Source: a virus. From it: DNA of 64,000 nt. The position numbers and the translations under genes were made by a program. Numbering within the stretch: position 1 is the stretch's first letter; each line of letters begins with the position of its first letter. Positions 3,669 to 64,000 of this stretch are shown here, piece after piece. The DNA is taken from IMG/VR virus record IMGVR_UViG_3300035670_000085, positions 35,897 to 99,896 of that record; one strand, given 5' to 3'. Under the pieces are notes generated by a model. That model saw only the letters and a program-made list of their open reading frames with translations, was not told the origin of the DNA and did no database searches.

Positions 3669-3953
3669 ATGAAACGTTATAAATCATTATTAGAAGATGA
3701 TAAAAATAAACGATTTGCTTTACTTCTTTCTGATATGAAACATAGTCGTGGTTCATTTAAATATTTTGATACTGAAAAAGAAGCAGTTGATTTTGTTAAG
3801 AAACTACACAGCCAAAATAAACTTATGAGATATGTAGAAATAGAATTGCTTGATAGAAGTATTAAAGATTATCAAAGTCCTAAATATAGTAGAGTATTGT
3901 GGGATGGATTACATAATGAATTATATGTTAGAGGATATTTGGAGAGAATATAA
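3669..3953 (+). CDS. Leader-bearing putative internal head protein
   Basis: N-terminus MKRYKSLLED. Confidence 0.7.
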   Translation: MKRYKSLLEDDKNKRFALLLSDMKHSRGSFKYFDTEKEAVDFVKKLHSQNKLMRYVEIELLDRSIKDYQSPKYSRVLWDGLHNELYVRGYLERI

Positions 3954-3972
3954 TAAATAAGAGGTTATCGTC

Positions 3973-4113
3973 ATGGGTAAAAATCCTTCAGAAGCAAATA
4001 AAAAAGAAACTCCTAAATGGAAAACAACTATAGTTATTTCTCATTATATAAAACCTAATGGGGCATGGGGAAAAAGAACTACAGAAATACGTGAAGAGGT
4101 TATTAAAAAATGA
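3973..4113 (+). CDS. Small hypothetical protein (46 aa)
   Basis: GAGG SD; ATGA overlap with next gene. Confidence 0.55.
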   Translation: MGKNPSEANKKETPKWKTTIVISHYIKPNGAWGKRTTEIREEVIKK

Positions 4114-4613
4114 GACGATATAAACCGCTGTTTGAAAAAGTTGATTTAGAAAAAAAAGATTATCATGTTAGAGAATGGGATGAAGATTCTCGTGATACAT
4201 GGGAATATCTTCTTTCTAAATATGAAAACTGGGATCAAGCTAATAAAGATGGTATGGGAAGTCTTTATAATACTTTAGAAAAAAGTTTTATAAGTAATGG
4301 TGATGTTGCAAAGGAATTACTAAAATCTAATAGACAAAATAAAAATTATTTAAATGTTGGTGATGTTCTTTATTTTAAATATATAAACGCTTCAATAATG
4401 GGAAGAAATCCTTTGGATAATAAAGGTATAAAAGAGTTTAAAAAAAATGCATATGTAATTGTGACAGAAGTGAATTTAGAATCTAAAGTTTATGGGTTTA
4501 ATAAAAGCAATAAAAACAAAACAATATTAGGAAATACTTTTTATTATAAAATAAGCGATATAAATGAGTTATTAGAAAAACGAGAAGGAAAATCAATAGA
4601 AGTAATTTATTAA
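4110..4613 (+). CDS. Leader-bearing putative internal head protein
   Basis: MRRYKPLFE. Confidence 0.7.
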   Translation: MRRYKPLFEKVDLEKKDYHVREWDEDSRDTWEYLLSKYENWDQANKDGMGSLYNTLEKSFISNGDVAKELLKSNRQNKNYLNVGDVLYFKYINASIMGRNPLDNKGIKEFKKNAYVIVTEVNLESKVYGFNKSNKNKTILGNTFYYKISDINELLEKREGKSIEVIY

Positions 4614-4615
4614 TT

Positions 4616-4915
4616 ATGAAACGTTATAAAAAATTATTTGAATCACAAACTTATCATTCAATAGCTTACAGAGATATTGAAAATACAAGATATAAATCTA
4701 TAAAACCATATAGAGAATATCTTATTATTACTTCTGAAAGTAAAATAGAAAAAGATGGAAATATGATTTGTTATGATAACATTAAATTATATACTAAAGA
4801 AAATTATGCATCTAAAAAAATATCTAACAAAATGATTTTAGTTGATGTAAAAAATATGTGCATTGATATTAAAAGAGACCATTGGATATTTAAAAATGAG
4901 GATATAAATATATGA
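4616..4915 (+). CDS. Leader-bearing putative internal head protein
   Basis: MKRYKKLFE. Confidence 0.7.
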   Translation: MKRYKKLFESQTYHSIAYRDIENTRYKSIKPYREYLIITSESKIEKDGNMICYDNIKLYTKENYASKKISNKMILVDVKNMCIDIKRDHWIFKNEDINI

Positions 4916-5343
4916 AACGGTATAAACCCTTACTTAGAGAGGAAAATTCACTATCGCAATTAGATAAACCAGAATTAGTAGATAAATTATTTCAATATTT
5001 TAAAGAGAATCCGTATCCACTTGACCACGAAGGATTCCATAAATTTGCTGAATCTCTTGGTATGGAAGCAGATGATTTAGAAATCTATGGTTGGGCAATT
5101 ATTAGCTGTTTTGTTACTGGTGGAAATTTTAATAAGTCTGGTAAGAAAGAAGAAGATTTTGATTCTAAAGAAATTGAGATTGGAATTGATATTGAAAAAG
5201 AGCATACCGACTATACTAATGAAAATCCTGTTGTAAAACGTATTGCAAATTTTATGCAAAAAAGAATTGCAAAAGATCATCTTTCAGAATTTTCAAATTA
5301 TTATACTTTGTTAAAAGAAATGGAAAAAAATGCAAAAAAATAA
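4912..5343 (+). CDS. Leader-bearing protein with DUF5661-like C-terminal domain
   Basis: MKRYKPLLRE; G-x3-EKEHT...IAKDHL-x-E...YYT-x-L-x2-ME. Confidence 0.65.
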   Translation: MKRYKPLLREENSLSQLDKPELVDKLFQYFKENPYPLDHEGFHKFAESLGMEADDLEIYGWAIISCFVTGGNFNKSGKKEEDFDSKEIEIGIDIEKEHTDYTNENPVVKRIANFMQKRIAKDHLSEFSNYYTLLKEMEKNAKK

Positions 5344-5348
5344 TAATA

Positions 5349-5362
5349 TATACTAATAAATA
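5349..5362 (+). promoter_or_regulatory. Late promoter TATACTAATAAATA
   Basis: Exact motif, intergenic. Confidence 0.8.
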
Positions 5363-5390
5363 TATAACAATAAAAAAGAGGTAATTGATC

Positions 5391-5708
5391 ATGTATAGAA
5401 GTGTATTTGAAGAAAGCAATGGTAAAAGAAAAATGAATGAAGCTGTAGTATTTTCTATTAGCACAATAGACGATGCTTTTGAAGCTATTCAAAAATGTGT
5501 TGCATTGATAATTGAAAAGAAAAAATCCAGCATGGCTATGATGCTTCCTAGAATAGCTGAAGCAGTAATGAACGGAATTAAAGATGCACTTGGAAATATC
5601 TATAGTGATCCTAACAAAATTGAATCTGTTAAAAAACAAATAGTAGCTAAATTTATTCGTTTCTTTAAACAAGATGCAGTTAGTGCTCCAGAAGAACCAA
5701 TGATGTAG
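5391..5708 (+). CDS. Leader-variant putative internal head protein
   Basis: MYRSVFEE, then KMNE as in the capsid N-terminus; AGAGGT SD. Confidence 0.6.
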   Translation: MYRSVFEESNGKRKMNEAVVFSISTIDDAFEAIQKCVALIIEKKKSSMAMMLPRIAEAVMNGIKDALGNIYSDPNKIESVKKQIVAKFIRFFKQDAVSAPEEPMM

Positions 5709-5716
5709 TATTAAGT

Positions 5717-5986
5717 ATGAAACGATACATTAGTATTTTTAAAGAATCTGGAACTGGTAATTACGCACCAAGTAGCATTCTTTTTAAAACAGATGAAGAG
5801 TTTAATAGGGCAGTGGAATTGTTAAGTTCTCTTAATTTTCAATTTAAACCAGATTTCTATATAAGAAAAAATGGTAATATTTCTGGGTATAGTAAAAATT
5901 ATTTAAGTTTTACATACTCTAAAGATTGGACTAAACTTGTTAAACTTCTTCAAAAAAATAATGTAGATTTCAAACAAATAAAATGA
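5717..5986 (+). CDS. Leader-bearing putative internal head protein
   Basis: MKRYISIFKE. Confidence 0.7.
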   Translation: MKRYISIFKESGTGNYAPSSILFKTDEEFNRAVELLSSLNFQFKPDFYIRKNGNISGYSKNYLSFTYSKDWTKLVKLLQKNNVDFKQIK

Positions 5987-6084
5987 GGCGATACAAACCA
6001 TTATTTGAATATATGACTCCTTCCGAAAGGAAAGGAGCTTTTCTACATGGTCAAACTAATTTAGGAAAGATGGTAATGAAATGA
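5983..6084 (+). CDS. Leader-bearing 33-aa micro-ORF (below the ORF-track cutoff)
   Basis: MRRYKPLFEYMTPSERKGAFLHGQTNLGKMVMK*; ATGA overlaps at both ends. Confidence 0.7.
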   Translation: MRRYKPLFEYMTPSERKGAFLHGQTNLGKMVMK

Positions 6085-6320
6085 AAAGATACAAAAGTAT
6101 ATTTAAAGAATCAAAAGAAGATGTTATAAAACGAGCATTAAATTTTGCAGATTCTGGCTCATTTCCTGTTAATAGAAAAGTATTTCGTTTTATGATGTAT
6201 TTAAATGATGAACAATTTGATATTGAAGAAATTAAGCAATTAGCATGTGAATTCTATAAAATACATAGAAGTAAAGTAGAAGGAATATTTAAAGAAGTTG
6301 AAAGATTAGAAAAAATATGA
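6081..6320 (+). CDS. Leader-bearing putative internal head protein
   Basis: MKRYKSIFKE. Confidence 0.7.
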   Translation: MKRYKSIFKESKEDVIKRALNFADSGSFPVNRKVFRFMMYLNDEQFDIEEIKQLACEFYKIHRSKVEGIFKEVERLEKI

Positions 6321-6988
6321 AAAGATACAAACAACTTTTTAAAGAAGATCATGAACATTGGATAGATATAAAATTTTCTGATATAGAAAAGTTGGAAGAA
6401 GAACTTCATCTTGCAGATTTTAAAAAACATGCTGGTGCTTCTGATTTTACAAAAGATTGGATAGAAATAAGACGTAAGATAAAAGGACCAGGAAACAAAT
6501 CAGCTAAATTACATTCACTAAAGGTAAATCGTAAGGACGATTACGTTATTTTTGTATTTAAATCATCACCAACATATTCCGGATTAGAAAAATCAGTCAA
6601 TGTTAAATCTATGACATGGAATGGAAAAGTTAAAGCTTATACCGAAATGATAAAAATAAATGACTTCTTCAAATTGGCAGAAACTAAACCAGGATATGTT
6701 GAAAAAGAAATGACTTGGAAAGAAATAAAAGAAATTCTTTCTGTTGCGCCGATTTCGGTCTCCTGCAATTGCGGAAGTTTCACCTATCAAGGATTGTCTT
6801 ATTATTTGACACAATTAGAGGGAACAATTTTTCCAAATAATATAGAACCGAAGCGATGGAATAAATACCATGATAAAGGAAATGATATAGGATTGCTTTG
6901 TAAACATTTATCAATGATTTTTAATAGCATAGATTTCTTTTTATCTAACTTTACAAGTATGATAAATAAATATATTCAGGGTAAATAA
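6317..6988 (+). CDS. Leader-bearing SWIM-type zinc finger protein
   Basis: MKRYKQLFKE; VSCNCGSF...LLCKHL (CxC...CxH). Confidence 0.7.
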   Translation: MKRYKQLFKEDHEHWIDIKFSDIEKLEEELHLADFKKHAGASDFTKDWIEIRRKIKGPGNKSAKLHSLKVNRKDDYVIFVFKSSPTYSGLEKSVNVKSMTWNGKVKAYTEMIKINDFFKLAETKPGYVEKEMTWKEIKEILSVAPISVSCNCGSFTYQGLSYYLTQLEGTIFPNNIEPKRWNKYHDKGNDIGLLCKHLSMIFNSIDFFLSNFTSMINKYIQGK

Positions 6989-6989
6989 C

Positions 6990-7490
6990 ATGCCTTCACG
7001 GTCAGAGAGACAAAGAAATTTCATCTTTGCTAAACGCGGAGAATACAAAACCAAATCAGATACTCCAGAAGATTGGAAATGGGTGTGGAATGATGAATGG
7101 GAAAAAATAGAGGAGAGGTTTCCAATAAAACGATATAAACCATTGTTTGAATCAAATAAAATTATCTATTTTATCCGTGCAACAGATAAACAAGAAGTAC
7201 AAAGTAAACATTATGGAGATTACTGGAGATTCTTCAAGTCCTTAAAAGATTTATCTAATTTAATAAAATCAAATCAATTATATGTTGCTCAAAAAGATAA
7301 AAATGATCAATATATGATAATAGGACAAGGAAATATAGACGAACTTGAATTAAATTATTCTGAATTAAACGATGACTTTGATTCAAAAGAGATGCATTTT
7401 AAATTCAAAGACTTATTCGATAAAAATTATACACCTTCCTCTAAAGTTCTTTATGCTGGAAAAATTGATTACGATTTAAAATTAAAATAA
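6990..7490 (+). CDS. Protein with an internal copy of the leader (possible fusion)
   Basis: IKRYKPLFES from nt 7125, preceded by AGGAGAGG. Confidence 0.6.
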   Translation: MPSRSERQRNFIFAKRGEYKTKSDTPEDWKWVWNDEWEKIEERFPIKRYKPLFESNKIIYFIRATDKQEVQSKHYGDYWRFFKSLKDLSNLIKSNQLYVAQKDKNDQYMIIGQGNIDELELNYSELNDDFDSKEMHFKFKDLFDKNYTPSSKVLYAGKIDYDLKLK

Positions 7491-7491
7491 T

Positions 7492-8640
7492 ATGAAAAGA
7501 TATAAACCATTATTTAAAGAATCTATTCAATCAGAAAAAGCTATAGCAGAATTAGTTGATTTCGTTATAGATAAATTATCTAATAATATGATGAAAAAAA
7601 TAAATAATGGTGATTTTATTCCAGAAAAAAGATTTAATTTAAGAATGAGTTTTGATGAAAATAAATATTCAAATCCACCAGAAATATTAAAAGAATTTGT
7701 TAATTTATTTTTATATGAATTTGATGTTATATTATCAAGTGATAAAGATAAAGCAAATGGTGTATATCAAAGTAAAAAAAATAGAATAGTATTATGGAAT
7801 GTATTATTTCCAAATACATGGACTAAAGATAATCCTCATTTTGAAGGAAAAAAAGAAATTAAAGATTATTTCAGAAGATATTCTAGAGGTACTCTAATTC
7901 ATGAGTTTGCCCATGCTTATGACGATTTTATAAGTCGTGGAAAATATTTACCTAAAAAATATAAAGATGCCCCAGAAAGTCATGAAGACGAGAAGGGATG
8001 GAAAGATTACGCAAAACAAAATTTAGAAGTCAATGCAAGATATACTGATTGGATAAATGAACATCAAAAAGAAAGAATTACTTACACTTGGCCAGAATAT
8101 GTAAAAGAATTTAAACAAGAATGGGGGATTAAATACTTAAATCCGGAACAATATCGAAGACTTATAAATAGACTATTTGCTCAATATAATGAACCACTAC
8201 CAGAAGATTTTAAACTAGAAGTTTTAAATAGTTTATCCTTTAAATTATTTCATAAAGGATTTGAGAATAAGTTAAATGTTAATGATTTTATTCCAGAAGA
8301 TAAAAGATGGAAAGATCAACTGACCAAAAAAGATATTTTTAATTATATGAAAAAATCTATACAGAATATTTTAACTGGAAAAGTTAAAGAATCTGAGATA
8401 AAAAATCCAGCAATAATTGATAATAGATATGCTGGTTTAAAATCTATAAAATATAGTTTTGAATTGATTGATTCTATGGAAGAAAATCTTAAAAAACATG
8501 CAGACAATCCAGATATTGTTAAAACAATTCAAAAACAAATTGATAAAGAATTAGCATATTATGAAGGATTTAAAAGAATATTTAAATTATCTGATGAAGA
8601 TTTAAAACAGATTAATGATGTTATGATAAAATATTCATAA
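7492..8640 (+). CDS. Leader-bearing zincin-like metallopeptidase
   Basis: MKRYKPLFKE; TLIHEFAHAYD; downstream Y...EVNARY. Confidence 0.7.
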   Translation: MKRYKPLFKESIQSEKAIAELVDFVIDKLSNNMMKKINNGDFIPEKRFNLRMSFDENKYSNPPEILKEFVNLFLYEFDVILSSDKDKANGVYQSKKNRIVLWNVLFPNTWTKDNPHFEGKKEIKDYFRRYSRGTLIHEFAHAYDDFISRGKYLPKKYKDAPESHEDEKGWKDYAKQNLEVNARYTDWINEHQKERITYTWPEYVKEFKQEWGIKYLNPEQYRRLINRLFAQYNEPLPEDFKLEVLNSLSFKLFHKGFENKLNVNDFIPEDKRWKDQLTKKDIFNYMKKSIQNILTGKVKESEIKNPAIIDNRYAGLKSIKYSFELIDSMEENLKKHADNPDIVKTIQKQIDKELAYYEGFKRIFKLSDEDLKQINDVMIKYS

Positions 8641-8661
8641 TTTCTATTATATTGAAGAAAT

Positions 8662-8675
8662 TATACTAATAAATA
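8662..8675 (+). promoter_or_regulatory. Late promoter TATACTAATAAATA
   Basis: Exact motif. Confidence 0.8.
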
Positions 8676-8689
8676 TAAAGGTAATAAAT

Positions 8690-8941
8690 ATGAAAAGGTA
8701 TAAGCCATTATTCGAATCCTCTCAAAGATTTTGTGCAATATATAAAGCACAAAATAATAAATGGTACCTAGCTCTTGCTGACGAAGAATACGGTACATCA
8801 GAAGATGCCACTACTTACGGACCTTTTTCTAGTAAAGAGCAAGCTCATAGGTATTTGTTGAGAAATTTTTCAAATCCTGGTGGAATAATTGAGGATGGTT
8901 CTGGAGAACATTCAGTACCTCCCAGTGTTGTTAAGCCTTAG
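8690..8941 (+). CDS. Leader-bearing putative internal head protein
   Basis: MKRYKPLFES. Confidence 0.7.
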   Translation: MKRYKPLFESSQRFCAIYKAQNNKWYLALADEEYGTSEDATTYGPFSSKEQAHRYLLRNFSNPGGIIEDGSGEHSVPPSVVKP

Positions 8942-8981
8942 ATCTACATAGACAATTCAAAAATAGAATAGGTATGTAATT

Positions 8982-9335
8982 ATGATATGTGAACTAATTT
9001 CTTTCAGTGCAGCAGAACTCAATACAGGAATAGATGTTATAAAAGATATAGAATTTATTTCTATAGTTAAAAATGATGCAGAAGCGCTTCCAAAAGTATA
9101 TAGACCAATTGAGATACGCTTTTCAAATGTAAGCGGTATTGCAGCAAATATTGATATTTTTTCTGATATCGAACATGCTGCTTATCTAACAACTCCAACT
9201 TTATCTGATAAAATAACTATAGCTAATGGCGGTACATTGACATTAACCCCAACTAAAGATGCTATTACTAAAATAGTTGCTAAAGGTACAGCAGGACATT
9301 CTGGAAATTTAAATATTACAATAATAAAAGAGTAG
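8982..9335 (+). CDS. Beta-rich virion protein candidate, paralog of 11010-11357
   Basis: Shared DI, PI-x-I, N-x-S/T, FSD-x-E-x3-Y-x2-TPT and I-x-I-x-KE* motifs; no MKRY leader. Confidence 0.55.
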   Translation: MICELISFSAAELNTGIDVIKDIEFISIVKNDAEALPKVYRPIEIRFSNVSGIAANIDIFSDIEHAAYLTTPTLSDKITIANGGTLTLTPTKDAITKIVAKGTAGHSGNLNITIIKE

Positions 9336-9344
9336 GTGTAAAAA

Positions 9345-9641
9345 ATGAAAAGGTACAAAAGCTTATTTAAAGAAGATTCTACAGAATTTAATAATGATGA
9401 TTTTGTTTATCAAGAATTAAAATTTAAAAAACAATTATCAAAAGAATTGAAATTACCTTATACTGGAAAATGGGCAAATCAAAATAAAGAACTTCCAATT
9501 TATTTTGATGATGCAGATATGGTGTCAATGTTAGATGATAAAACTATTTTTAAAAATGCTATAAATGGTAAGCATACATATGGAGAATTAAAAACATTTG
9601 TTATAAACTTTATGAAAAAAAACACTCCTAATCTTATTTAA
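9345..9641 (+). CDS. Leader-bearing putative internal head protein
   Basis: MKRYKSLFKE. Confidence 0.7.
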   Translation: MKRYKSLFKEDSTEFNNDDFVYQELKFKKQLSKELKLPYTGKWANQNKELPIYFDDADMVSMLDDKTIFKNAINGKHTYGELKTFVINFMKKNTPNLI

Positions 9642-9656
9642 TAGAGGTAAAAAAAA

Positions 9657-9938
9657 ATGAAAAGATATAAAAGTGTTATTAGTAAAAATGAAATAAAATT
9701 AAATGAATCTAAGTGGAGTGATGCTAATCTAAGCAGGTTCTTTTTTAGTGGTGAATATGATAATTATCAGCATGGGAATCCAAAGAAAGCAGCGCAGCAA
9801 ATTTATGATCTCACTGTTAATTATTTAGATAATATTGAAAAGAATCTAGAATTGGCAGGTTCATTTTTAGCACCAGCCATAAAAGATGAACTTGAAAAAA
9901 TGTTAAAAAAGAATTTTAGTAGAATAAAAATAAAATGA
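9657..9938 (+). CDS. Leader-bearing protein with extended leader
   Basis: MKRYKSVISKNEIKLNE. Confidence 0.7.
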   Translation: MKRYKSVISKNEIKLNESKWSDANLSRFFFSGEYDNYQHGNPKKAAQQIYDLTVNYLDNIEKNLELAGSFLAPAIKDELEKMLKKNFSRIKIK

Positions 9939-10243
9939 AAAAATATAAATCATTATTTAAAGAATCTGAACAAAAAGCTAGTTACGATTTGGTAGCAAAT
10001 CTTTATAAAAAGGGTTCAAAATGGAGAACTATAGAGTGGGCAAATAATAATGATAAAGCAATAATATCTAATCTATCTCCAACTCTTTTAAAAAAAGGAG
10101 AGAATTGTAATATTGAGATGATGAAAGGTTCTTCTCAATTTAATCTCATAATTTCATGGAAAAACTCTAGCAATGTCATATTAGGATGCTCACTTTCTTT
10201 TGATAATGAAAAAGAAGCACAGAAAGAAGGGTGGAGTATATGA
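9935..10243 (+). CDS. Leader-bearing putative internal head protein
   Basis: MKKYKSLFKE. Confidence 0.7.
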   Translation: MKKYKSLFKESEQKASYDLVANLYKKGSKWRTIEWANNNDKAIISNLSPTLLKKGENCNIEMMKGSSQFNLIISWKNSSNVILGCSLSFDNEKEAQKEGWSI

Positions 10244-10467
10244 AGCGTTATACACCAATAAAACTACAAGAACAAGATGAAGAAGAATTACATCCACGAG
10301 TTCTTGAAATACTCGATTGTTTCAAAAACGAAGATTTTAATAATTTTTCAAAACGTCTTGATTTTGCATCAAAGCTACTTGAAATTATAGTATTATCAAA
10401 GGATGTTCGTATAAGAAGACTCATAAAGAAAATCTGTCAGGCAATAAAAGAAATAGAGGAGGAATAA
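10240..10467 (+). CDS. Leader-variant putative internal head protein
   Basis: MKRYTPIKLQE; ATGA overlap at 10240. Confidence 0.65.
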   Translation: MKRYTPIKLQEQDEEELHPRVLEILDCFKNEDFNNFSKRLDFASKLLEIIVLSKDVRIRRLIKKICQAIKEIEEE

Positions 10468-10469
10468 AA

Positions 10470-10712
10470 ATGAAAAGATATAAGAGTATTTTAAAAGAAG
10501 CACAACCAATTCATATCGGAAAAGTTACTGTTTTTGTTCATTTGAAAATCAAAGAAGAAGAAGTAAGTAAGATTATAGATCTATTTGATAATATAGATAG
10601 CGATCAAAAAATTCAAAATTTTCAATATTTAGCTGGAAATATGAAACTTAAAAATTTAGCAAAATTTATTGATAATAAAAATATTTATCTTTTAAGAATT
10701 TCAGAGGAATAA
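10470..10712 (+). CDS. Leader-bearing putative internal head protein
   Basis: MKRYKSILKE. Confidence 0.7.
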   Translation: MKRYKSILKEAQPIHIGKVTVFVHLKIKEEEVSKIIDLFDNIDSDQKIQNFQYLAGNMKLKNLAKFIDNKNIYLLRISEE

Positions 10713-10714
10713 AA

Positions 10715-10963
10715 ATGAAAAGATATAAAAGCATTATTAAAGAAGCTGAATTTTCAAAAGGAAACATCCAGGCAATAATTGCCGCATTTAAAGAATGTGG
10801 ATTTAAAGTTGAAGGGAAAGAAGGCGAACAGAAAGAAGGAATTTTTTATGCTTCTTTTGAGAAAGGAAAAGAAATTCTCTCTATAGAGGATGCTATAGAA
10901 AACTTACAAGCATTAAAAAAAAACGATAGAAAAAACACAGGATATAGATTTGAAATAGTATAG
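10715..10963 (+). CDS. Leader-bearing putative internal head protein
   Basis: MKRYKSIIKE. Confidence 0.7.
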   Translation: MKRYKSIIKEAEFSKGNIQAIIAAFKECGFKVEGKEGEQKEGIFYASFEKGKEILSIEDAIENLQALKKNDRKNTGYRFEIV

Positions 10964-11009
10964 CACGACAATCCAATCAGATTTGATATATCCGACTGAG
11001 AGAGTAATT

Positions 11010-11357
11010 ATGATAACTGAAAAAATTGCAATAGTTAACGCAGACCTCGTAGCGGGAAAAGCGGTTAAAACAATAGAAGATATATCTTTAACTAGATTAG
11101 ATGCACAAGCTTCATCGAAACAATATATTCCTATCAAAATAAAATGTACTAATAACACTAATGTTTCTGGCAATTTTATTGCATTTTCTGATATGGAATA
11201 TATACAATATATAGCAACACCAACAATTACTGATTTAGTTCCTTTAGCAATCGGTGAATCGTTTGAATATATTCCAACAAATCAAAAAATGACAACTATT
11301 GTGGTCGAGTCTGCTGTTTTTACTGGAACCTATGATATAGAAATTTGGAAAGAATAA
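11010..11357 (+). CDS. Beta-rich virion protein candidate, paralog of 8982-9335
   Basis: MITEKIAIV start after GAGAG; aligns with the 8982 ORF. Confidence 0.55.
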   Translation: MITEKIAIVNADLVAGKAVKTIEDISLTRLDAQASSKQYIPIKIKCTNNTNVSGNFIAFSDMEYIQYIATPTITDLVPLAIGESFEYIPTNQKMTTIVVESAVFTGTYDIEIWKE

Positions 11358-11376
11358 ATTTTGAAGTTTAAATAAA

Positions 11377-11607
11377 ATGAAAAGGTACAAGAGTGTTATT
11401 AAGGAATCTGGGGATAATTATGAGAATTTTGGCATCTCCTTATCAAAAATGTATAGTAAATCGACAAATATGACGCAATTAGCCAATATGATTTCAAATA
11501 GTATTGGAGAAGAGATCGGAGATAGCGAGGATTTAATAAAGGTATCTAAAACTCTTATTGGTAATTTACAAGACCTTATAAATGATGCAAAATCTTCAAG
11601 AGAATAA
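11377..11607 (+). CDS. Leader-bearing putative internal head protein
   Basis: MKRYKSVIKE. Confidence 0.7.
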   Translation: MKRYKSVIKESGDNYENFGISLSKMYSKSTNMTQLANMISNSIGEEIGDSEDLIKVSKTLIGNLQDLINDAKSSRE

Positions 11608-11609
11608 AT

Positions 11610-11771
11610 ATGATAATTGAAAAAATTGCAATAGTTAGCTTTGAGAGCGACCCAAAAACGTATAGTGAAATGCGTAAGCTTGTGGACGAACATTTCTCCG
11701 AAAAGGGTGGAGGTTGGTCTAGCGGTTTTAGGAATTTTATAAAATACGTAAGGGGAGAGGAAGTATATTAA
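11610..11771 (+). CDS. 53-aa ORF whose first 9 codons copy the 11010 gene start
   Basis: MIIEKIAIV vs MITEKIAIV; near-identical 28 nt, then unrelated. Confidence 0.5.
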   Translation: MIIEKIAIVSFESDPKTYSEMRKLVDEHFSEKGGGWSSGFRNFIKYVRGEEVY

Positions 11772-11850
11772 AAAAAGCGGAAACGACAACTATGAAAAAT
11801 AGGAAAGAGTGCGTATAAAAAAATTTTAAACAACGAGGAAGGGAAATAAG

Positions 11851-12216
11851 ATGAAAAGATACAAATCAATTTTAAACGAAGAATCACAATTTTCTAAAAA
11901 TTTACATAAGTATTTAAGACATTATGATAATCTTGAAACTTATAGCGAGTTAATTAAATTAATAAAAACTATAAATTATAATAAAAAAATAGAAACAGAT
12001 GAAGCAAAACAAAATGTTTATAAAGCTGTAATTTTATTGCTTCTTGGATATACTGGTTCAGAAGTGAGTAATAAACGTGATTATCTTTCTAAAGAATGGG
12101 AGAAAGAGGAAGAAAGTAAGAACGAAACTCCAGATGAATTTATGAAAAGAATGAAAATGGTGCCTTATAAAGAAAATTTGTCATGCAATAAAAGAAATGG
12201 AGGAGGAATAAAATGA
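11851..12216 (+). CDS. Leader-bearing putative internal head protein
   Basis: MKRYKSILNE. Confidence 0.7.
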   Translation: MKRYKSILNEESQFSKNLHKYLRHYDNLETYSELIKLIKTINYNKKIETDEAKQNVYKAVILLLLGYTGSEVSNKRDYLSKEWEKEEESKNETPDEFMKRMKMVPYKENLSCNKRNGGGIK

Positions 12217-12524
12217 AACGATATAGAAGTATTTTTAAAGAAGAAAAAAATTTACCTAATATGGATATTGATTCTTTTGTTAAAGAATTAATGAAAAATA
12301 GAAATTTAAAAGATACTTTTAAATCGTATACTATTGATGAATCTTATGAAAATCCAGATGGAGATTTTAATTCTGTTATTTATTTAGAAGATTTTATAAC
12401 TGAAAGACCAAGTTATGATTTTGTGAATCATTTACGCAGGATTGTTAATAAAAATGAAGATATTATTGATAGTAATATTGGTCGGGACAAATATAGAGTT
12501 GTTTTAAATATAACCCATAAATAA
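12213..12524 (+). CDS. Leader-bearing putative internal head protein
   Basis: MKRYRSIFKE. Confidence 0.7.
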   Translation: MKRYRSIFKEEKNLPNMDIDSFVKELMKNRNLKDTFKSYTIDESYENPDGDFNSVIYLEDFITERPSYDFVNHLRRIVNKNEDIIDSNIGRDKYRVVLNITHK

Positions 12525-12539
12525 AAAGGTGGAAATAAA

Positions 12540-12743
12540 ATGAAACGATACAAATCGATACTTAAAGAAGGAATGAGATACAATACTAGCTATTTTGAAG
12601 CAGGAAAAGATTTAAGATCAGCAAAAAAAATAGATACTGTAATTGGTGTTTTAGAAGAAATGATTATGGAATTAAAAGCTTGGAAAAAAGAAGGAGCTAA
12701 AGAAGTTCAAGGAAATAAAAATGAATTTATTCCATTATGGTAA
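12540..12743 (+). CDS. Leader-bearing putative internal head protein
   Basis: MKRYKSILKE. Confidence 0.7.
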   Translation: MKRYKSILKEGMRYNTSYFEAGKDLRSAKKIDTVIGVLEEMIMELKAWKKEGAKEVQGNKNEFIPLW

Positions 12744-12761: not shown

Positions 12762-14828
12762 ATGGCTAAAATAAAATTAGTTGAAAAGATAGGAATTAAT
12801 GTTCCTATTGAAAATATAAAAGTTTTTGATAAAGTAAAGATAGTAGAAGCTGCCGGAAAGAATTACGAGGCTATAGCAGTAATTGAGAAAGTACCTTTTA
12901 CTAGATTTGGCAGTGTTAATGATAACAATAGATATTATCCACGTAAACTTTGGGAAAAAGTTATAAAAGAAGGAGTATGTGAAGGAAGCTCTCTTTATAC
13001 AAACCATGCAGAAAATGAAACAGATGTATCTAAAAAAGCAGGTATCTGGCATAATGCATTTATTGACGATAAGAATAAAGTATGCAGAGCAGATCTTTAT
13101 CTTATAGGACCAAACGGACAACTCTTTCTCGATGCTTTAAAAGCTGGTTCAAAAGGGGAGGGTATCAGTTCAGTTGGCTACGGTGAGTTTGAAGATAGAT
13201 ACGAAGAATTAAAAGAATTTGGTAATATAGGACATGATGTAAAAGTAGTACGATGGGACACGTATGATGGAGAGTCTTATGGCGACTGGGTACATCAGCC
13301 GTCTCAAAACGTATTTGCAACATTAGAAAATATTAAAGAAAATAATGAAAACTCTTCTAATTTAAATGAAAGTTATACTAATAATAGTAAAGCTACTAAT
13401 GATAAATTAGATGAAAATATAAAATTACAAGAGAATAAAAAAGAGGTTTATATGGATAAGTCGATATTGAAGAATATGGTATTGAATGAAATAAAACGTT
13501 CAAAAAATAATCCTAATCTTCTTGAAGCAATTCAAGGATTGAAAGAGATTGACACTGCTGGTGATTCTGAACTTAATAATAGAGTAAATGATGCAATTGA
13601 AACTCTCACAACTAAACTTGAAGAAAGTAAAAGTAATGCAGAAAAACAGCTCAATGAAAGCACAACTAAATTGAATGAAATGACTGCTAAATATAATAAA
13701 CTTGTTGAGAATTATAAAAAAGCTACTTCTAAAGTTGTAGAATTGACAGAATCAACAAAACTTATGGAATCCGATATTAAATGCTTGGTAGAAGATTCTA
13801 ATCTCCGTGATAATGATATTAAATGTCTTACAGAAGACCGTAAAGTTATGATATCCGATCTTAAAAAAATGATTGAAGATCGTAAAGCAATGAGAAAAGA
13901 TATTAATGTTCTTACTACTAAATTGAAAGAAGCTGAAGAAGTTATTGGTCAACAAGAAGATGAACTTGAAAAACGTGGATTTGAATTTGAAGAAGATGAT
14001 GAAGAAGTAGAATTTGATGCGGAAGGAAATCCTATAGTAAAAGAGCCTGTAACAGAAGAAGAAATGCCTGCACCTGAAGTGCTTCCAGAAACCCCGGCAG
14101 AAATAAAAGAAGAAGGTGACGAACAAGAACTTCCTATGCAAATCGATCCTCTTCCAACTGAACCTGCAATGGTTGAAGAAGAAGATGAAATGATGAATCT
14201 TGATTTTGAAGATGAAGAAGAAGTTGAAGAACTTGAAGAAGAAGATGCTTTTGATGCATTTGCTCCTGCAGGTGAAGAAATGGATGAGCCTATGGTAGAA
14301 GAAGATGAGATGGAAATGCCTGTTGAGGAAATGCCAGTTGAAGAAGCTCCGGCAGAAGAAGTGAAAGAAGAAGAAATGCCTGCACCTGAAACTCTTGACA
14401 CTCCTCCTGCACCGGCTCCTGCTCCTATAGCCATAGAAGAACCTAAACCAGAAGAAACTAAAATGGTTGAGGAAGACGAAGAAGAAAAAGAAGATGAAGA
14501 AGAAGTTGAAGAACCAGAAGAAGAAAAAGAAGAAATGAAAGAATCTGTAATTAAGTTTTCATGGGAACCAAAAAAAGAAGTTAAAAAAGCTCCTGTAAAA
14601 ACTAAAATCGTAGAAAATAATATTAAGGCTGATCTTAAAAAATTCTATGAAAGTCAGATTGCAAAGAATCCTTCTGTAAAAGCTATTGAAAAACAAATCA
14701 TGTCTGCTAAATCTTTGTTAGAGGCCTTTGATATGGTTGATGTATTCAAGAGCAGAAAGTCAGATAAACTTGTGAAAGTTACTGAAAGTAAAAAATCTGA
14801 TGGTAATGTGATAAAATTTAAATTCTAA
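12762..14828 (+). CDS. Prohead protease (T4 gp21-like) fused to a coiled-coil/acidic scaffold domain
   Basis: VNDNNRYYP, NH, GISSVGYG and DWVHQPS match gp21 motifs; coiled coil and Glu/Pro-rich C-terminal part; upstream of the capsid gene. Confidence 0.85.
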   Translation: MAKIKLVEKIGINVPIENIKVFDKVKIVEAAGKNYEAIAVIEKVPFTRFGSVNDNNRYYPRKLWEKVIKEGVCEGSSLYTNHAENETDVSKKAGIWHNAFIDDKNKVCRADLYLIGPNGQLFLDALKAGSKGEGISSVGYGEFEDRYEELKEFGNIGHDVKVVRWDTYDGESYGDWVHQPSQNVFATLENIKENNENSSNLNESYTNNSKATNDKLDENIKLQENKKEVYMDKSILKNMVLNEIKRSKNNPNLLEAIQGLKEIDTAGDSELNNRVNDAIETLTTKLEESKSNAEKQLNESTTKLNEMTAKYNKLVENYKKATSKVVELTESTKLMESDIKCLVEDSNLRDNDIKCLTEDRKVMISDLKKMIEDRKAMRKDINVLTTKLKEAEEVIGQQEDELEKRGFEFEEDDEEVEFDAEGNPIVKEPVTEEEMPAPEVLPETPAEIKEEGDEQELPMQIDPLPTEPAMVEEEDEMMNLDFEDEEEVEELEEEDAFDAFAPAGEEMDEPMVEEDEMEMPVEEMPVEEAPAEEVKEEEMPAPETLDTPPAPAPAPIAIEEPKPEETKMVEEDEEEKEDEEEVEEPEEEKEEMKESVIKFSWEPKKEVKKAPVKTKIVENNIKADLKKFYESQIAKNPSVKAIEKQIMSAKSLLEAFDMVDVFKSRKSDKLVKVTESKKSDGNVIKFKF
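13374..13386 (+). promoter_or_regulatory. Intragenic late promoter (TATACTAATAATA)
   Basis: Late motif inside the protease-scaffold linker. Confidence 0.65.
13452..14828 (+). CDS. Nested in-frame scaffold protein (from Met231)
   Basis: AAGAGGT SD just before the ATG at 13452; late promoter about 65 nt upstream. Confidence 0.65.
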   Translation: MDKSILKNMVLNEIKRSKNNPNLLEAIQGLKEIDTAGDSELNNRVNDAIETLTTKLEESKSNAEKQLNESTTKLNEMTAKYNKLVENYKKATSKVVELTESTKLMESDIKCLVEDSNLRDNDIKCLTEDRKVMISDLKKMIEDRKAMRKDINVLTTKLKEAEEVIGQQEDELEKRGFEFEEDDEEVEFDAEGNPIVKEPVTEEEMPAPEVLPETPAEIKEEGDEQELPMQIDPLPTEPAMVEEEDEMMNLDFEDEEEVEELEEEDAFDAFAPAGEEMDEPMVEEDEMEMPVEEMPVEEAPAEEVKEEEMPAPETLDTPPAPAPAPIAIEEPKPEETKMVEEDEEEKEDEEEVEEPEEEKEEMKESVIKFSWEPKKEVKKAPVKTKIVENNIKADLKKFYESQIAKNPSVKAIEKQIMSAKSLLEAFDMVDVFKSRKSDKLVKVTESKKSDGNVIKFKF

Positions 14829-14889: not shown

Positions 14890-15105
14890 ATGAAACGATA
14901 TAAATCATTATTCAAAGAAGAATTTCCTCTTAATTACAAACAAGGAATGTTTCTTAAAAACATTATAGAGGAATATCTTATAGATATTGGAAAAGAAGAA
15001 AAAAGAAAAGAAGCGTTTACTATAATTTTACATGCAATATCTAACCATAAACTTGATTTTGATAAAGATAAAATTTTATTGTTTTTACAGAAAAAATATA
15101 ATTAA
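14890..15105 (+). CDS. Leader-bearing putative internal head protein
   Basis: MKRYKSLFKE; lies between scaffold and capsid genes. Confidence 0.7.
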   Translation: MKRYKSLFKEEFPLNYKQGMFLKNIIEEYLIDIGKEEKRKEAFTIILHAISNHKLDFDKDKILLFLQKKYN

Positions 15106-54636: not shown

Positions 54637-54637
54637 A

Positions 54638-56192: not shown

Positions 56193-56414
56193 ATGAAAAA
56201 GTATAGAAGTATATTTCAAGAAGCTGAAGAAGATAAAACACAAGATTCTATTGATGAATTAATTACTATGAAACGCCTTGATACTGAAGAAGATAAAGGA
56301 AAATTTCTTGAACTTATAAAAGGAATCGTTTTTTCAAATAATTCTAAAGGAAATGAATTTTTGAATAAAATAAATGATTTCACTTCTACTTTAAAAAAAG
56401 AAGATATTGAGTAA
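56193..56414 (+). CDS. Leader-bearing putative internal head protein
   Basis: MKKYRSIFQE. Confidence 0.7.
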   Translation: MKKYRSIFQEAEEDKTQDSIDELITMKRLDTEEDKGKFLELIKGIVFSNNSKGNEFLNKINDFTSTLKKEDIE

Positions 56415-57560: not shown

Positions 57561-59735
57561 ATGCCAGGAAGTTTTAGGTCCGATTTTTCTATAAAAGACC
57601 TTTCGGGTTATATACAAGCAACAGGAGTTGAAACTGGGTTTATGGCCATTAATGCTAGTAAAGGCCAATCTAAACCAGTTAAATGTAGAAATCAAGATGA
57701 TGTTTTAACATATTTTGGTAATCCTTCAGCAACATTTCCTGAAGTTTTTGAAGCACTTGCTTTTGTACAATCAGCTCCTTGTTGGATTGGACGTGCAATT
57801 GGAACTGGTGCATATTGGGGCGGTGTTGATGTAACTGCTACTAATGTGGTTCCTTTTGGCGGTGGTAGAGGAAATCCAGAAACTTTTAATTTTACAACTG
57901 CAACACAACTTACTGAATATACTGCTGGTTCTGGAACGGGACTGGTGAAACATTTTTCTGGTACTGCTACAAATATACCTGCTGTAAACGCAACATTAAA
58001 AATAAAAGTTGGTTCAACATATGTAAATGCTTCTGAAACTGGAGATTCTATTTCTGGTTCTGATATTGATTCTGGGGCAACACATACATTTATAAAAACA
58101 ACTGGTGCATATGATTTTACCTTTACTGGAACTGTTGGAACTGTTGCTGAAGTTACTGGTAATGTTGCTCAACCTTATAATCTATCTACAAATAAATATG
58201 TAAATATTACAATTGATGGAACACTGTACGAAAATATAGATTTGTCTGATGGCGCTAGTGATCCTTCAGCAGTTACAAATGTAGAAGTTGTAAATGCTAT
58301 AAATGCTATTATACCCGGAACAAAAGCACATACAAGTGGAAATTATGTGAAGCTTAATGGTGCTATAGCAAGTCTGGCATCTGGAAATATTTCTGTAGAA
58401 GATCCAACATTAGGAGCTTCTGCTTTATCTACAGTATTTAGTTCTGGTGGTGGTGTTTTAAGTGCTAAAGGAACTGATCCTGTTGGTGCAGTGCCTAAAT
58501 ATGGTGAAACTGTAGTTTTAGAATATTCTTATACAAGTGATATTTCTTCTACAGTATCTCATTCATTCTTTTCAGCGTCTCCTGCTGATGATGAATATAA
58601 AGTGCTAATTGATAATATTTCTGGTTCACAATTTAATCTTAAATTATATCAAACTGTAGCCGGTAATGATGTATATCTTAAAGAATATAATTATTCATTA
58701 CTTCGTGAAAAAGATGCATTTGGAAAAAATCTTTATATTATGGATGTATTTGATGATGATCCTTATTTAATTCCTGTAGTTAATAGTTCTTATGCTGGAA
58801 CGATTCCTTCACTCCCCGGCACTCCTGCAGTTGCACTTGCTGGTGGTGATAGTGGTTCTGCTCCTTCAGCTTCTAATTATGTAACTGTTTGGGATTATGC
58901 TAAAAAAGTACAAGATTATCCTGCTAAAATATTTATGAACGTAAATGGATTAAATCTTGCATATGTTAATAATATTCTTGAAACTTATCAATATTATTCA
59001 CATCAAATCGGTGTTGTTCCTCTAGGAAATGATGTAGCTGATGCAATTGCTTGGAGAAGTGCTACTACAATAGATTCTAAATATACATCACTCTATACAA
59101 ACTGGAGAAAAATCTATGATGTATATAATGATAGTTATGCATGGATTTCAAACGTTGGTTCAATAGGACGTAAATATGCAGCAATGGCAGATGTATATGA
59201 TGGACTCTCTCCTGCTGGTATTGATGAAGGTCCTTATGGTGGTCAAATTGCAGACTGGACAACAATAGAAATGGAATACGGATATGATGATTCTGAACTC
59301 GCAGATTTAGATGCAGCTCAAATCAATCCTATTATTCTTGATGAGATTTATGGAGTTATGATTTATGGTGATAAAACTTTACAAGTAAGTTTATCAGATA
59401 CATCATTTATACATTCAAAAAGGATTATTGATACGATTATTGAAACTGCTGTTAAACAAGTTTTGAGAAAACAAGAATTTAAATTGAATGATCAAAACCA
59501 TCAGTTATCTGCTAAATCTAAAATAGAAACTTTTATGGAACCTATTTTAGCTAAACAGTTGATTAGGGATTATCGTGTCCAGTGTGACGATATTAATAAC
59601 TCAGATGCGGTGAAAACACAAAGATTGTTCATTGTCGACATTATCTTGAAAGTTTCCGTGAATTCTCAGAAATGTAGGGTTAGACTAACACAAACCTCTC
59701 AAAATGCAGTTCTTAGTCAAATAACGCCGGCATAA
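57561..59735 (+). CDS. Contractile tail sheath protein
   Basis: DLS..., KG, YFG-x-P N-terminus; LAGG-x-S; SPAG, INPI, IYGDKTL, FI-x3-R, FKLND, V-x-CD-x2-NN. Confidence 0.92.
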   Translation: MPGSFRSDFSIKDLSGYIQATGVETGFMAINASKGQSKPVKCRNQDDVLTYFGNPSATFPEVFEALAFVQSAPCWIGRAIGTGAYWGGVDVTATNVVPFGGGRGNPETFNFTTATQLTEYTAGSGTGLVKHFSGTATNIPAVNATLKIKVGSTYVNASETGDSISGSDIDSGATHTFIKTTGAYDFTFTGTVGTVAEVTGNVAQPYNLSTNKYVNITIDGTLYENIDLSDGASDPSAVTNVEVVNAINAIIPGTKAHTSGNYVKLNGAIASLASGNISVEDPTLGASALSTVFSSGGGVLSAKGTDPVGAVPKYGETVVLEYSYTSDISSTVSHSFFSASPADDEYKVLIDNISGSQFNLKLYQTVAGNDVYLKEYNYSLLREKDAFGKNLYIMDVFDDDPYLIPVVNSSYAGTIPSLPGTPAVALAGGDSGSAPSASNYVTVWDYAKKVQDYPAKIFMNVNGLNLAYVNNILETYQYYSHQIGVVPLGNDVADAIAWRSATTIDSKYTSLYTNWRKIYDVYNDSYAWISNVGSIGRKYAAMADVYDGLSPAGIDEGPYGGQIADWTTIEMEYGYDDSELADLDAAQINPIILDEIYGVMIYGDKTLQVSLSDTSFIHSKRIIDTIIETAVKQVLRKQEFKLNDQNHQLSAKSKIETFMEPILAKQLIRDYRVQCDDINNSDAVKTQRLFIVDIILKVSVNSQKCRVRLTQTSQNAVLSQITPA

Positions 59736-61275: not shown

Positions 61276-61281
61276 ATATAT

Positions 61282-61365: not shown

Positions 61366-61398
61366 TAAAATAATATATTAAAATTGAGGTTTATTTAT

Positions 61399-62541: not shown

Positions 62542-62683
62542 TATGAAACTTAAACTCTGTGATAGTGAAATTATGAAGATTAAGTATCATAGAATGAGAG
62601 ATAAATTTAAGTACCTTGCTGAATATAATAAAGCTTTTGAAGATGCTTTAAAAGAAGGTGCTAGTAAGATGAAGAAGAAATAA
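62423..62683 (+). CDS. Overlapping +1-frame ORF, gp51-like or frameshift extension
   Basis: Open 119 nt into the upstream gene; F-L...SEIM...Y...YL pattern. Confidence 0.5.
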   Translation: MVRRRKGPFDVKSTLSNSYLFQLIPPINYETLQQGIFLCNMKLKLCDSEIMKIKYHRMRDKFKYLAEYNKAFEDALKEGASKMKKK

Positions 62684-62746
62684 AGTTACATATAACCACT
62701 TTGATTGAAAAATCATTGTGGTTTTTCTATTATTTTTCAAAATTTT

Positions 62747-62760
62747 TATACTAATAAATA
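62747..62760 (+). promoter_or_regulatory. Late promoter
   Basis: Exact motif. Confidence 0.8.
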
Positions 62761-62774
62761 TAAAGTTTACCCAT

Positions 62775-63125
62775 ATGAAAAGATATAAATCCTTATTTGA
62801 ACAAAATAGCGATGATTATGATCTCAAAACAAAATATAAGGAGTTCAATGATTTATATTTTAACGGAGAACTTTCACCAACCACTAAATTAGAATGGGCA
62901 GATAGAATGGGTGATGCAACTATGGCTATGACACATCCAACACTTCCATTCACAATTAAAATGGGTAATAAAAAAGACTTAGATGAAATAGTTCTTGACT
63001 CGACATTGATACACGAAATGATTCATGTTCTTCAATTTCAAATGGGAAGACAAGGTTTTCACGATGATTGGTTCAATGCTGAAAAAGAACGTATAGAAAA
63101 ATTAAATCCAAAATTAGATATATGA
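62775..63125 (+). CDS. Leader-bearing SprT-like metallopeptidase
   Basis: MKRYKSLFE; FNDLYFNGEL, TLIHEMIH, HDDWF. Confidence 0.8.
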   Translation: MKRYKSLFEQNSDDYDLKTKYKEFNDLYFNGELSPTTKLEWADRMGDATMAMTHPTLPFTIKMGNKKDLDEIVLDSTLIHEMIHVLQFQMGRQGFHDDWFNAEKERIEKLNPKLDI

Positions 63126-63607
63126 AAAGATATAAACCGTTATTCAAAGAAGAAGTTATAGGCGATCTAAAAAGTTTAGAATTTACCAAAACTTATCATG
63201 GTACAACTTCTCAAAAACTACCGGGTGGATTAAAGTTATCCAAAAGTGAGAATAAAAATATATTTGGCGGCAATGCTTCAATAAGTGTAACTGATAATAA
63301 ATTTTTAGCGCAATCTTTTACAAAAGGGGAGTTGGGCCTCGATCCAGAGGGTAAGATTTTTATTATTACAAAACCTATAAAAGTACTAGATTTACGAGAT
63401 AAAAAGACGCATAGTTTTTGGAAAAATTCAAAATACAATCCTCAAATAATTCTAAATGCTGGGTACGATGGTGTAGCTTTTGAAAATCTTGAAGAGATAA
63501 GAATTGAATCTTTTTATAAAGAAATTCCAATAAATAAAATAAAAAATGCTTTAGAGATTCAATTATTTAAGAATGTAGAAGAAAGATATATAAAAGAACT
63601 AAAATGA
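63122..63607 (+). CDS. Leader-bearing ADP-ribosyltransferase-like protein
   Basis: MKRYKPLFKE; TYHGT, SVTDN-x3-A-x2-F, LDL, GYDGV, EIQLF. Confidence 0.65.
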   Translation: MKRYKPLFKEEVIGDLKSLEFTKTYHGTTSQKLPGGLKLSKSENKNIFGGNASISVTDNKFLAQSFTKGELGLDPEGKIFIITKPIKVLDLRDKKTHSFWKNSKYNPQIILNAGYDGVAFENLEEIRIESFYKEIPINKIKNALEIQLFKNVEERYIKELK

Positions 63608-64000
63608 AAAGATATAAACCGTTATTCAGAGAAAATAATATCTCAGATTTCTATGAGTATGAAGAAGTTCGGAGAACTATTGACGAACTTCAATTACCAT
63701 ATAATATAGAAGAAATAATTGATAAATTTAATAAAACAAAAACTCAAAAATTAGATAAAGCAATTTGGAAAATTTTGAATAATACTGATTATGATGTCAA
63801 TACAGAACAGGATGTTAGAGCGCGATTAGAGCAGTATGAGCGTGACCTAAACAACTATAATAAAGTATTGAATGAATTTAAGAAGGGTATATTTTATCCT
63901 TCCTTAATAGTACATACAGAAAAAGATGGTTATTATTTAGTAGCAGGAAATACTAGATTAATGGTATCTAAAGTTAATAATTTAATACCGTTTGTAAAAA
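63604..64000 (+). CDS. Leader-bearing ParB/Srx-like protein (runs off the window)
   Basis: MKRYKPLFRE; PSLIV...YYLVAGNTRL. Confidence 0.65.
   Translation, partial: MKRYKPLFRENNISDFYEYEEVRRTIDELQLPYNIEEIIDKFNKTKTQKLDKAIWKILNNTDYDVNTEQDVRARLEQYERDLNNYNKVLNEFKKGIFYPSLIVHTEKDGYYLVAGNTRLMVSKVNNLIPFVK

Follow-up and report, generated by a model that had tools for sequence, protein, structure and literature searches.

The last 64 kb of the 99,896-bp viral contig IMGVR_UViG_3300035670_000085 from IMG/VR (genome positions 35897-99896; this stretch of 64,000 nucleotides is called the window) encodes a large set of unrelated, mostly small proteins that share one short N-terminal leader. This leader, MKRYK[SP][LIV][FLI](K)E, is probably a capsid-targeting and processing signal of the phage T4 type that has been greatly expanded. 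The phage represents a deeply divergent, uncultured lineage of the T4 superfamily, and the expansion of the tag set relative to T4 is about tenfold. The contig is classed as linear in IMG/VR, has a CheckV completeness of about 62% and a guanine-plus-cytosine content of 26-35%, and no overlap was found when its ends were compared. Positions below are those of the window unless they are given as genome or locus positions.

The shared leader

On the + strand, open reading frame (ORF) starts fit M-[KR]-[KR]-Y-[KR]-x-[LIV]-[FLI]-(x)-E, a tag of 9-10 residues of the MKRYK-S/P-L-F-K-E type. The window contains 26 copies at ORF starts; in addition, the ORF at 5391 starts with a degenerate tag, and the copy at 7125 lies inside an ORF. 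Elsewhere in the contig are a full tag (MKRYKPLFEAED, genome position 26258) and a looser form (MKRYQSQFMES, genome position 8044). The total of 30 is a lower bound, since the last tagged ORF leaves the contig end and the contig is incomplete. The tagged ORFs together comprise about 10.8 kb, or about 11% of the contig, and 22 of the copies fall within 3669-12743, the stretch immediately before the prohead protease gene at 12762.

The strict form M[KR][KR]Y[KR]x[LIV][FLI] is present in 25 copies in the six frames of the contig, against a mean of 0.03 in 30 simulated Markov-1 genomes, and all 25 stand at ORF starts on the + strand. Tyr4 is found in 28 of 28 tags, L/I/V at position 7 and F/L/I at position 8 in 27 of 28 each, and Glu at position 9 or 10 in 26 of 28. 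As positions 7 and 8 are both hydrophobic, the P3 residue is hydrophobic for either register of the Glu. Arg3 is encoded by AGA (13), CGA (6), CGT (3), AGG (3), and CGG (1), Ser6 by AGY (9) and TCN (7), and Tyr by TAT (19) and TAC (9). The 30 nt upstream of the tags have nothing in common except an A-rich ribosome site. The use of both codon families for Arg and Ser, and the differing upstream DNA, indicate that selection acts on the peptide. When the first 11 residues are cut off, an all-against-all BLASTP of the 30 payloads gives no pair at E < 0.01.

These results agree in most points with a preliminary description of the stretch made from its letters alone. The + strand starts listed there were each found in place, the five Arg codons that it named (CGT, CGA, CGG, AGA, and AGG) are all in use, with Ser and Tyr codons varying as well, and the similarity does end after the tag. 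Its placing of 22 copies just upstream of a prohead protease gene also holds, the gp21 fold of that protein being confirmed by profile and Foldseek. The scan of the whole contig and of relatives found the tag across a phage family. The list itself stands for the + strand copies, four of which are irregular. The tag at 5391 is degenerate (MYRSVFEE), and the Glu is displaced in 9657 (MKRYKSVISKNE) and 10240 (MKRYTPIKLQE). The 7125 tag has its own GAGGAG ribosome site with ATA replacing ATG, and shares its frame with a 45-aa (amino acid) module (MPSRSERQRNFIFAKRGEY...) that precedes it in ORF 6990-7490, so that it is either a gene fusion to this module or a case of rare start codon use. The minus-strand variant listed at 24522 (MVTRYEPLF...) is weak and not convincing, and is not counted.

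Protease-scaffold and capsid genes

The gene downstream of the array (12762-14828, +) encodes a protein of 688 aa. The ORF has no match in Pfam, in PHROGs, or by phmmer against the PDB. Its first ~240 residues are 33-41% identical in 15 relatives, where the gene always lies just upstream of the capsid gene. A profile of these protease relatives matches T4 gp21 (5JBL) in the PDB at E 8.8e-4, in an alignment that places the invariant His82 and Ser136 on the catalytic positions. The AlphaFold 2 (AF2) model of the protein has a predicted local distance difference test (pLDDT) score of 72.7 and is confident for residues 1-180, and a Foldseek search with it gives 5JBL as the top three matches (E 6.4e-8, prob 1.0, TM 0.70). 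Beyond the protease domain (residues ~1-180), the protein comprises a coiled coil, an extremely acidic low-complexity stretch, and a basic C-terminus. This arrangement indicates a fusion of a gp21-fold prohead protease with a scaffold. The fusion protein is presumed to be both the enzyme that removes the tag and the docking partner.

Within the Asn-rich linker of the protease-scaffold ORF, a copy of a late-promoter-like motif (TATACTAATAATAG, 13374-13460) lies upstream of an in-frame Met. Its position suggests a nested, separately expressed scaffold protein. Nested scaffolds are familiar from lambda C/Nu3. In several relatives the N-terminus of the protease-scaffold is itself tag-like, with MNKYKTLQE or MSKYKYLQE (L010:1129-3180, L018:1083-3134, and L002:8048-9817), and is followed by a conserved ...KGKxLLIE/S (a slash here and below marks a predicted cut). 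By analogy with LIE-9 of T4 gp21, the latter is a possible autoprocessing site.

The major capsid protein (15311-16819, +) is of the gp23 type (PF07068, 25.3 bits with a cut-off of 24.4). Its Glu79 is invariant and preceded by [LMI]-x in 22 of 22 aligned homologues, which is the same hydrophobic-x-Glu form as the leader ends. The likely maturation site is MNE79/TT. The capsid propeptide also contains a tag-like GKTYRSMLQE (15431-15457). The closest capsid homologues keep this element (GKTYKSMLQE, SKSYHAMLQE, and TKTYGSLIKE), and it is absent in relatives at 45% identity or less. The likeness suggests that the capsid propeptide may bind the scaffold through this element and that the cargo tag may imitate it.

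Late-promoter-like motif

A late-promoter-like motif, TATACTAATAAATATA, is present in about 20 copies on the + strand, one of them at 8662-8677 (+). The form TACTAATA occurs 30 times on the + strand and 9 times on the - strand, against 10.4 expected per strand. Further copies lie near ~2005-2007, 5349, 13374, 15127 (capsid), 34064 (terminase), 41449, 57511 (sheath), and 62747. The motif thus precedes the genes of the capsid, the large terminase (34077-36176), and the tail sheath (57561-59735), the last two identified by Pfam, PHROGs, and fold searches of the window. It also precedes the tagged ORFs 8690, 41487, and 62775 and the degenerate-tag ORF 5391, and the copy near ~2005-2007 stands before the operon that runs into the tagged array. 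This distribution is consistent with late transcription of the tagged genes, together with the head genes.

Relatives and tag dialects

The phage has no close cultured relative in INPHARED, where the closest, Xanthomonas phiXF1, is only 25% identical. Metagenomes contain 49 capsid homologues at 33-92% identity, the closest at 79-92%. A scan of IMG/VR with the single capsid protein found nothing, and a scan with the capsid alignment found 18 loci at 32-48% identity over the best segment, mostly 37-42%.

In these relatives, too, the protease-scaffold gene is preceded by arrays of small ORFs with this type of leader, each genome having its own dialect. Locus L008 has MKRYKSVLKE, MEKYKSKLTE, and MKYKSRFSE, L001 has M[KEQ][KR]YKRQFEE, and L012 has MKRY[TI]RKFKEE. 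In one relative contig, of 89.8 kb, the tagged ORFs number at least 25 and form two or more clusters. The core common to the family is M-x-[KR]-Y-[KR]-x-x-[FL]-x-E, and a hydrophobic position 7 is not universal. A strict DNA pattern for MKRYKS-hh-KE finds five stretches in 3 of 2.9 million IMG/VR contigs, all of this family, and a narrower one (F at position 8, K at 9) has no match in IMG/VR.

Over the six positions after the Tyr, leader identity is 2.54 within genomes and 1.67 between genomes, and none of 500 permutations reaches this difference. Each DUF5661 orthologue has its leader in the dialect of the genome that encodes it, and the tag is missing from the most distant homologues. Genome-specific dialects on unrelated and on orthologous payloads point to one shared partner in each genome. 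The same pattern would arise by gene conversion, or if new genes were inserted behind a leader already in place.

In two relatives (L005:5958-6749 and L004:2875-3636), modules like 56193 and like 4912 (DUF5661), which are separate genes in this contig, are fused. The fused cargo keeps a second tag at the joint (MKRYEPKFK... and MKRYERKFKEE). This agrees with a second role of the tag as a cleavable linker.

Payloads

The predicted mature payloads range from 2.7 to 44.7 kDa (median about 10 kDa), and their isoelectric points are mixed. Nearly all payloads are without a match in Pfam and PHROGs, and none matches a known anti-defence protein. Confident domains are found in only two, an SprT-like domain in 62775 and DUF5661 in 4912, and both start after the tag. 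For the 382-aa payload (7492), an Atlas search gives leads only, LPD23 at 0.87 and SprT-like at 0.84. The ADP-ribosyltransferase-like and ParB-like labels for 63122 and 63604 are unconfirmed by Pfam or PHROGs. The AF2 model of the DUF5661 cargo has a pLDDT of 89.9, with residues 1-8 below 50 and disordered, which indicates that the leader is a flexible extension outside the DUF5661 fold. A fold search with this model against the PDB gives no match (best E 3.2).

In a comparison covering ±10 kb around each capsid gene of the relatives, only four payload families have tagged homologues (4912/DUF5661, 10240, 12540, and 56193), and the rest are apparently lineage-specific. The conserved families, at least four in number, could be head-core components and not effectors.

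An acidic 134-aa ORF outside the window (genome 19427-19831) follows a late-type promoter motif and contains three tandem internal tag cores without a cleavable Glu (SKYKSLFD, SRYKPIFG, and IQYKSVMD). As Asp at position 10 of the T4 signal blocks processing and not targeting (PMC9026906), the 19427-19831 protein could be a non-cleavable core binder. By the same analogy, its three cores could make it a multivalent core binder, an adaptor, or a competitor.

Comparison with known systems

T4: The T4 capsid-targeting sequence (CTS) is MKTYQEFIAE (PMC8442874). It is present on IPI, IPII, and IPIII and is removed by the prohead protease gp21 (Mullaney & Black 1996; reviews PMC9026906, PMC3012670). 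IPIII is reported to need no more than its first 10 residues to be packaged; residues 4 and 7 are important for targeting, and residues 8 and 10 for processing (PMC9026906). T4 has three Ip proteins, all of them GmrSD inhibitors, and at least 10 are reported across the T-evens (PMC12373910). T-even-type contigs in IMG/VR contain 2-3 clustered MKTY[QNK]EFIxE ORFs with unrelated bodies. The leader described here resembles the T4 CTS in being an N-terminal stretch of about 10 residues on unrelated small proteins, with the pattern M-K-x-Y-x-x-hydrophobic-hydrophobic-x-E. As in T4, a gp21-fold protease and a gp23-type capsid are encoded in the same genome, and the tagged genes are clustered and vary between relatives. 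In contrast to the three tagged genes of T4, about 30 are present in 100 kb. The tag is basic (KRYK), whereas that of T4 is neutral or acidic, and the Glu of the basic tag stands at either position 9 or position 10. Protease and scaffold form a single protein, whereas T4 gp21 and gp22 are separate. Unlike in T4, the array lies directly upstream of the protease gene, and internal tags stand at module joints (7125, and in relatives L004 and L005). The principle itself is known from T-even phages, whose diverse internal proteins share one CTS (PMC3012670, PMC9026906, PMC12373910). What is new lies in the variations on it: the size of the set, the basic chemistry of the tag, the fusion of protease and scaffold, the dialects, and the internal tags.

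phiKZ-type phages: Many head-internal proteins of phiKZ, 201phi2-1, and SPN3US, including ejection and inner-body proteins, are cut after Glu by a gp21-related protease (PMC5694885, PMC7411985), a likeness to the cleavage predicted here. The phiKZ-type giant phages carry large cargo sets and devote a substantial fraction of their genes to virion proteins (PMC5694885, PMC7411985). Their motif is S/A/G-x-E or A-x-E, the propeptides are often longer than 100 residues, and there is no common short tag. In contrast, the leaders described here have L/F/I at P3 and are 9-10 residues long, and the capsid site has L/M/I at P3.

Encapsulins and P1 Dar: The cargo-loading peptides of encapsulins and the Dar system of phage P1 (PMC9024508) are similar in that short peptides or adaptors load diverse proteins into an HK97-fold shell. 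However, the encapsulin tags are C-terminal and uncleaved, and P1 Dar uses the adaptors DarA/Hdf and a longer N-terminal region (PMC9024508). Neither system involves processing of the gp21 type.

Proposed mode of action and alternative explanations

The tagged proteins would be made late, together with the head proteins, as their common promoter-like motif suggests. The basic, Tyr-containing front of the tag, M-K-R-Y-K, would then dock onto the core of the assembling prohead, likely onto the very acidic scaffold part of the protease-scaffold protein, and the cargo would be trapped as the shell forms around it. Given the similarity of the sites, the gp21-type protease is predicted to cut after the Glu of the hydrophobic-x-Glu tag end and to mature the capsid at the same kind of site, [LMI]-x-E79. 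By analogy with T4, the mature proteins, mostly 7-25 kDa, would remain beside the DNA inside the head, and at least some would enter the host with it, as the T4 Ip proteins do. The presence of the tagged proteins in the virion, their injection, and their anti-defence or host-takeover roles are proposed only by this analogy.

Several points weigh against this reading. The phage is uncultured and known from its DNA sequence alone. Unlike the T4 CTS, the tag is strongly basic (+4), and it may dock by a different chemistry. Several relatives have Lys, Gln, or Arg at position 7, which in T4 helps to determine targeting. Four of 10 residues are identical to the T4 CTS and two more are similar, which is too short to separate descent from convergence. 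The hydrophobic-x-Glu motif is likewise short, and common in this Glu/Lys-rich proteome. Thirty cargo species would need a low copy number each, or only some of them would be packaged. Finally, the two tagged genes at genome positions 8044 and 26258 lie in a replication/recombination region outside the late modules.

The most serious alternative is that the tag does target the core and is cleaved, but that the majority of the tagged proteins serve in assembly or in the core, in the manner of T4 gp67/gp68. They would then be degraded and expelled, or remain inside as inert proteins, and would not be injected effectors. The four payload families kept across relatives (4912/DUF5661, 10240, 12540, and 56193) would suit such a role, as would the place of the 10240 and 12540 families in the array upstream of the protease, with homologues of 10240 adjoining the protease gene in relatives. 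The tag-like starts MNKYKTLQE and MSKYKYLQE of the protease-scaffold in relatives, and the fact that most payloads are tiny and without an enzymatic signature, agree with it as well. However, most payloads are lineage-specific, which is more typical of accessory or arms-race genes, the SprT-like and zincin-like payloads are unlike scaffold, and the T4 Ip proteins with an analogous tag are injected anti-restriction proteins (PMC12373910). This explanation is considered unlikely. A leader recognised by a non-capsid partner, for instance a chaperone, an enzyme that modifies the proteins, or machinery for export or for targeting to a compartment, would account for the two tagged genes outside the late modules. 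Against such a partner, every relative has its tagged genes in tight clusters around the genes for protease, scaffold, and capsid, the tag end has the same motif as the capsid maturation site, and the determinants of the T4 CTS are matched. A radical-SAM-linked tag was considered and rejected, as no radical-SAM domain is present in the contig, which is about 62% complete. A partner of this kind is improbable.

Still less probable is a common start that is a feature of DNA or translation (a recombined cassette or an A-rich initiation region), or that is all that fast-diverged paralogues have kept. AAA at codon 2 and an A-rich start do generally favour initiation, the genes stand in tandem, and the similarity of leaders within a genome could stem from gene conversion or from insertion behind an existing leader. 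Nevertheless, Arg and Ser are each drawn from both unrelated codon families and the upstream DNA is unconserved, and Tyr4, the hydrophobic pair, and the Glu have no obvious role in initiation. A DNA repeat or translation element is ruled out by these codon data. Payload orthologues are still 35-56% identical between genomes, a rate of change too slow to erase paralogy, and two payloads belong to different Pfam families. Co-resident payloads, in contrast, share nothing, and diverged paralogy is therefore rejected as unlikely.

A T4-like tag expanded about tenfold, as the preliminary description had proposed, is supported by every test that was made of the protease, the capsid, the CTS determinants, and the conservation in the family, and the promoter-like motif agrees with it. 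A more specific model goes further, and is tentative and rather doubtful as a whole. According to it, the lineage would package and deliver at least 30 distinct, mostly lineage-specific proteins per genome by means of a portable basic tag that co-evolves with an acidic scaffold, and the tag could be used to pick out injected proteins in metagenome sequences. The tags would also act as cleavable module joints, and the 19427-19831 protein with its three non-cleavable tag cores would be an adaptor or competitor that tunes loading.

Significance

If the tag works as in T4, sequence alone would be enough to list the capsid cargo, and probably the injected proteins, throughout this family of uncultured phages. 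The list would run to about 30 proteins in each genome, most of them without a known function, and would form a rich pool of candidate anti-defence and host-takeover factors. The T4 rule (Tyr4 and a hydrophobic-x-Glu end) would hold across a very deep divergence, in a phage whose capsid is barely recognisable as gp23, and a T4-type system would be seen to scale tenfold. The dialects and the internal joint tags yield testable predictions on the co-evolution of tag and scaffold, and are relevant to the recruitment of new cargo. Phage vectors for protein loading could also profit from a second, orthogonal CTS.

Tagged reading frames along the window

All ORFs in this section are on the + strand. 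The array begins with ORFs of 94 aa (3669-3953, MKRYKSLLE/DD), 167 aa (4110-4613, MRRYKPLFE/KV), and 99 aa (4616-4915, MKRYKKLFE/SQ). The 143-aa ORF at 4912-5343 (MKRYKPLLRE/E) contains the all-helical DUF5661 payload (PF18905, E 1e-10). The degenerate-tag ORF at 5391-5708 (105 aa, MYRSVFEE/S) has a late-type promoter motif of its own. It is followed by an ORF of 89 aa (5717-5986, MKRYISIFKE/S), a mini-ORF of only 33 aa (5983-6084, MRRYKPLFE/Y), and ORFs of 79 aa (6081-6320, MKRYKSIFKE/S) and 223 aa (6317-6988, MKRYKQLFKE/D). The ORF at 6990-7490, of 166 aa, contains the internal tag at 7125 (IKRYKPLFE/S). The largest payload is that of the 382-aa ORF at 7492-8640 (MKRYKPLFKE/S), which has an HEFAH zincin-like motif and a weak DUF4344 match.

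The second part of the array comprises an 83-aa ORF directly after a late-type promoter motif (8690-8941, MKRYKPLFE/SS), a 98-aa ORF (9345-9641, MKRYKSLFKE/D), the 93-aa ORF with the atypical tag end MKRYKSVISKNE (9657-9938), and a 102-aa ORF (9935-10243, MKKYKSLFKE/S). The payload of the next ORF, of 75 aa (10240-10467, MKRYTPIKLQE/Q), belongs to the family that is kept beside the protease gene in relatives. ORFs of 80 aa (10470-10712, MKRYKSILKE/A), 82 aa (10715-10963, MKRYKSIIKE/A), 76 aa (11377-11607, MKRYKSVIKE/S), 121 aa (11851-12216, MKRYKSILNE/E), and 103 aa (12213-12524, MKRYRSIFKE/E) follow. The last ORF before the protease gene has 67 aa (12540-12743, MKRYKSILKE/G), and its payload is kept in relative L003.

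The remaining tagged ORFs are dispersed. One of 71 aa lies between the protease-scaffold and capsid genes (14890-15105, MKRYKSLFKE/E). Another, of 137 aa, is in the structural module after a late-type promoter motif (41487-41900, MKRYKRLFE/QE), and a third, of 72 aa, is upstream of the sheath gene (56193-56411, MKKYRSIFQE/A) and has a payload kept in relatives. Near the contig end, the 116-aa ORF at 62775-63125 (MKRYKSLFE/Q) contains the SprT-like zincin directly after the tag (PF10263, E 2.5e-11, residues 19-112). A 161-aa ORF (63122-63607, MKRYKPLFKE/E) and the ORF that leaves the contig end (63604-64000, MKRYKPLFRE/N) complete the series.

Neighbouring genes and other features

Two untagged paralogues are located within the tagged array, at 8982-9335 and 10983-11357. 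They are 38% identical (E 5e-22) and have no Pfam or PHROG match. The start of a 53-aa ORF at 11610-11771 (MIIEKIAIV) resembles them. No tRNA genes were found in the window. Directly after the capsid gene, on the opposite strand, lies a gene for a large HNH homing endonuclease (16909-18714, -; PHROG 3339, E 1e-105), and GIY-YIG-like ORFs are present on both sides of the tagged gene at genome position 26258. A minus-strand block contains a duplicated gene pair, 26225-26527 (-) and 28408-28887 (-), with the common start MSGGHYQYQYRYLE[YC]LADEIERDF.

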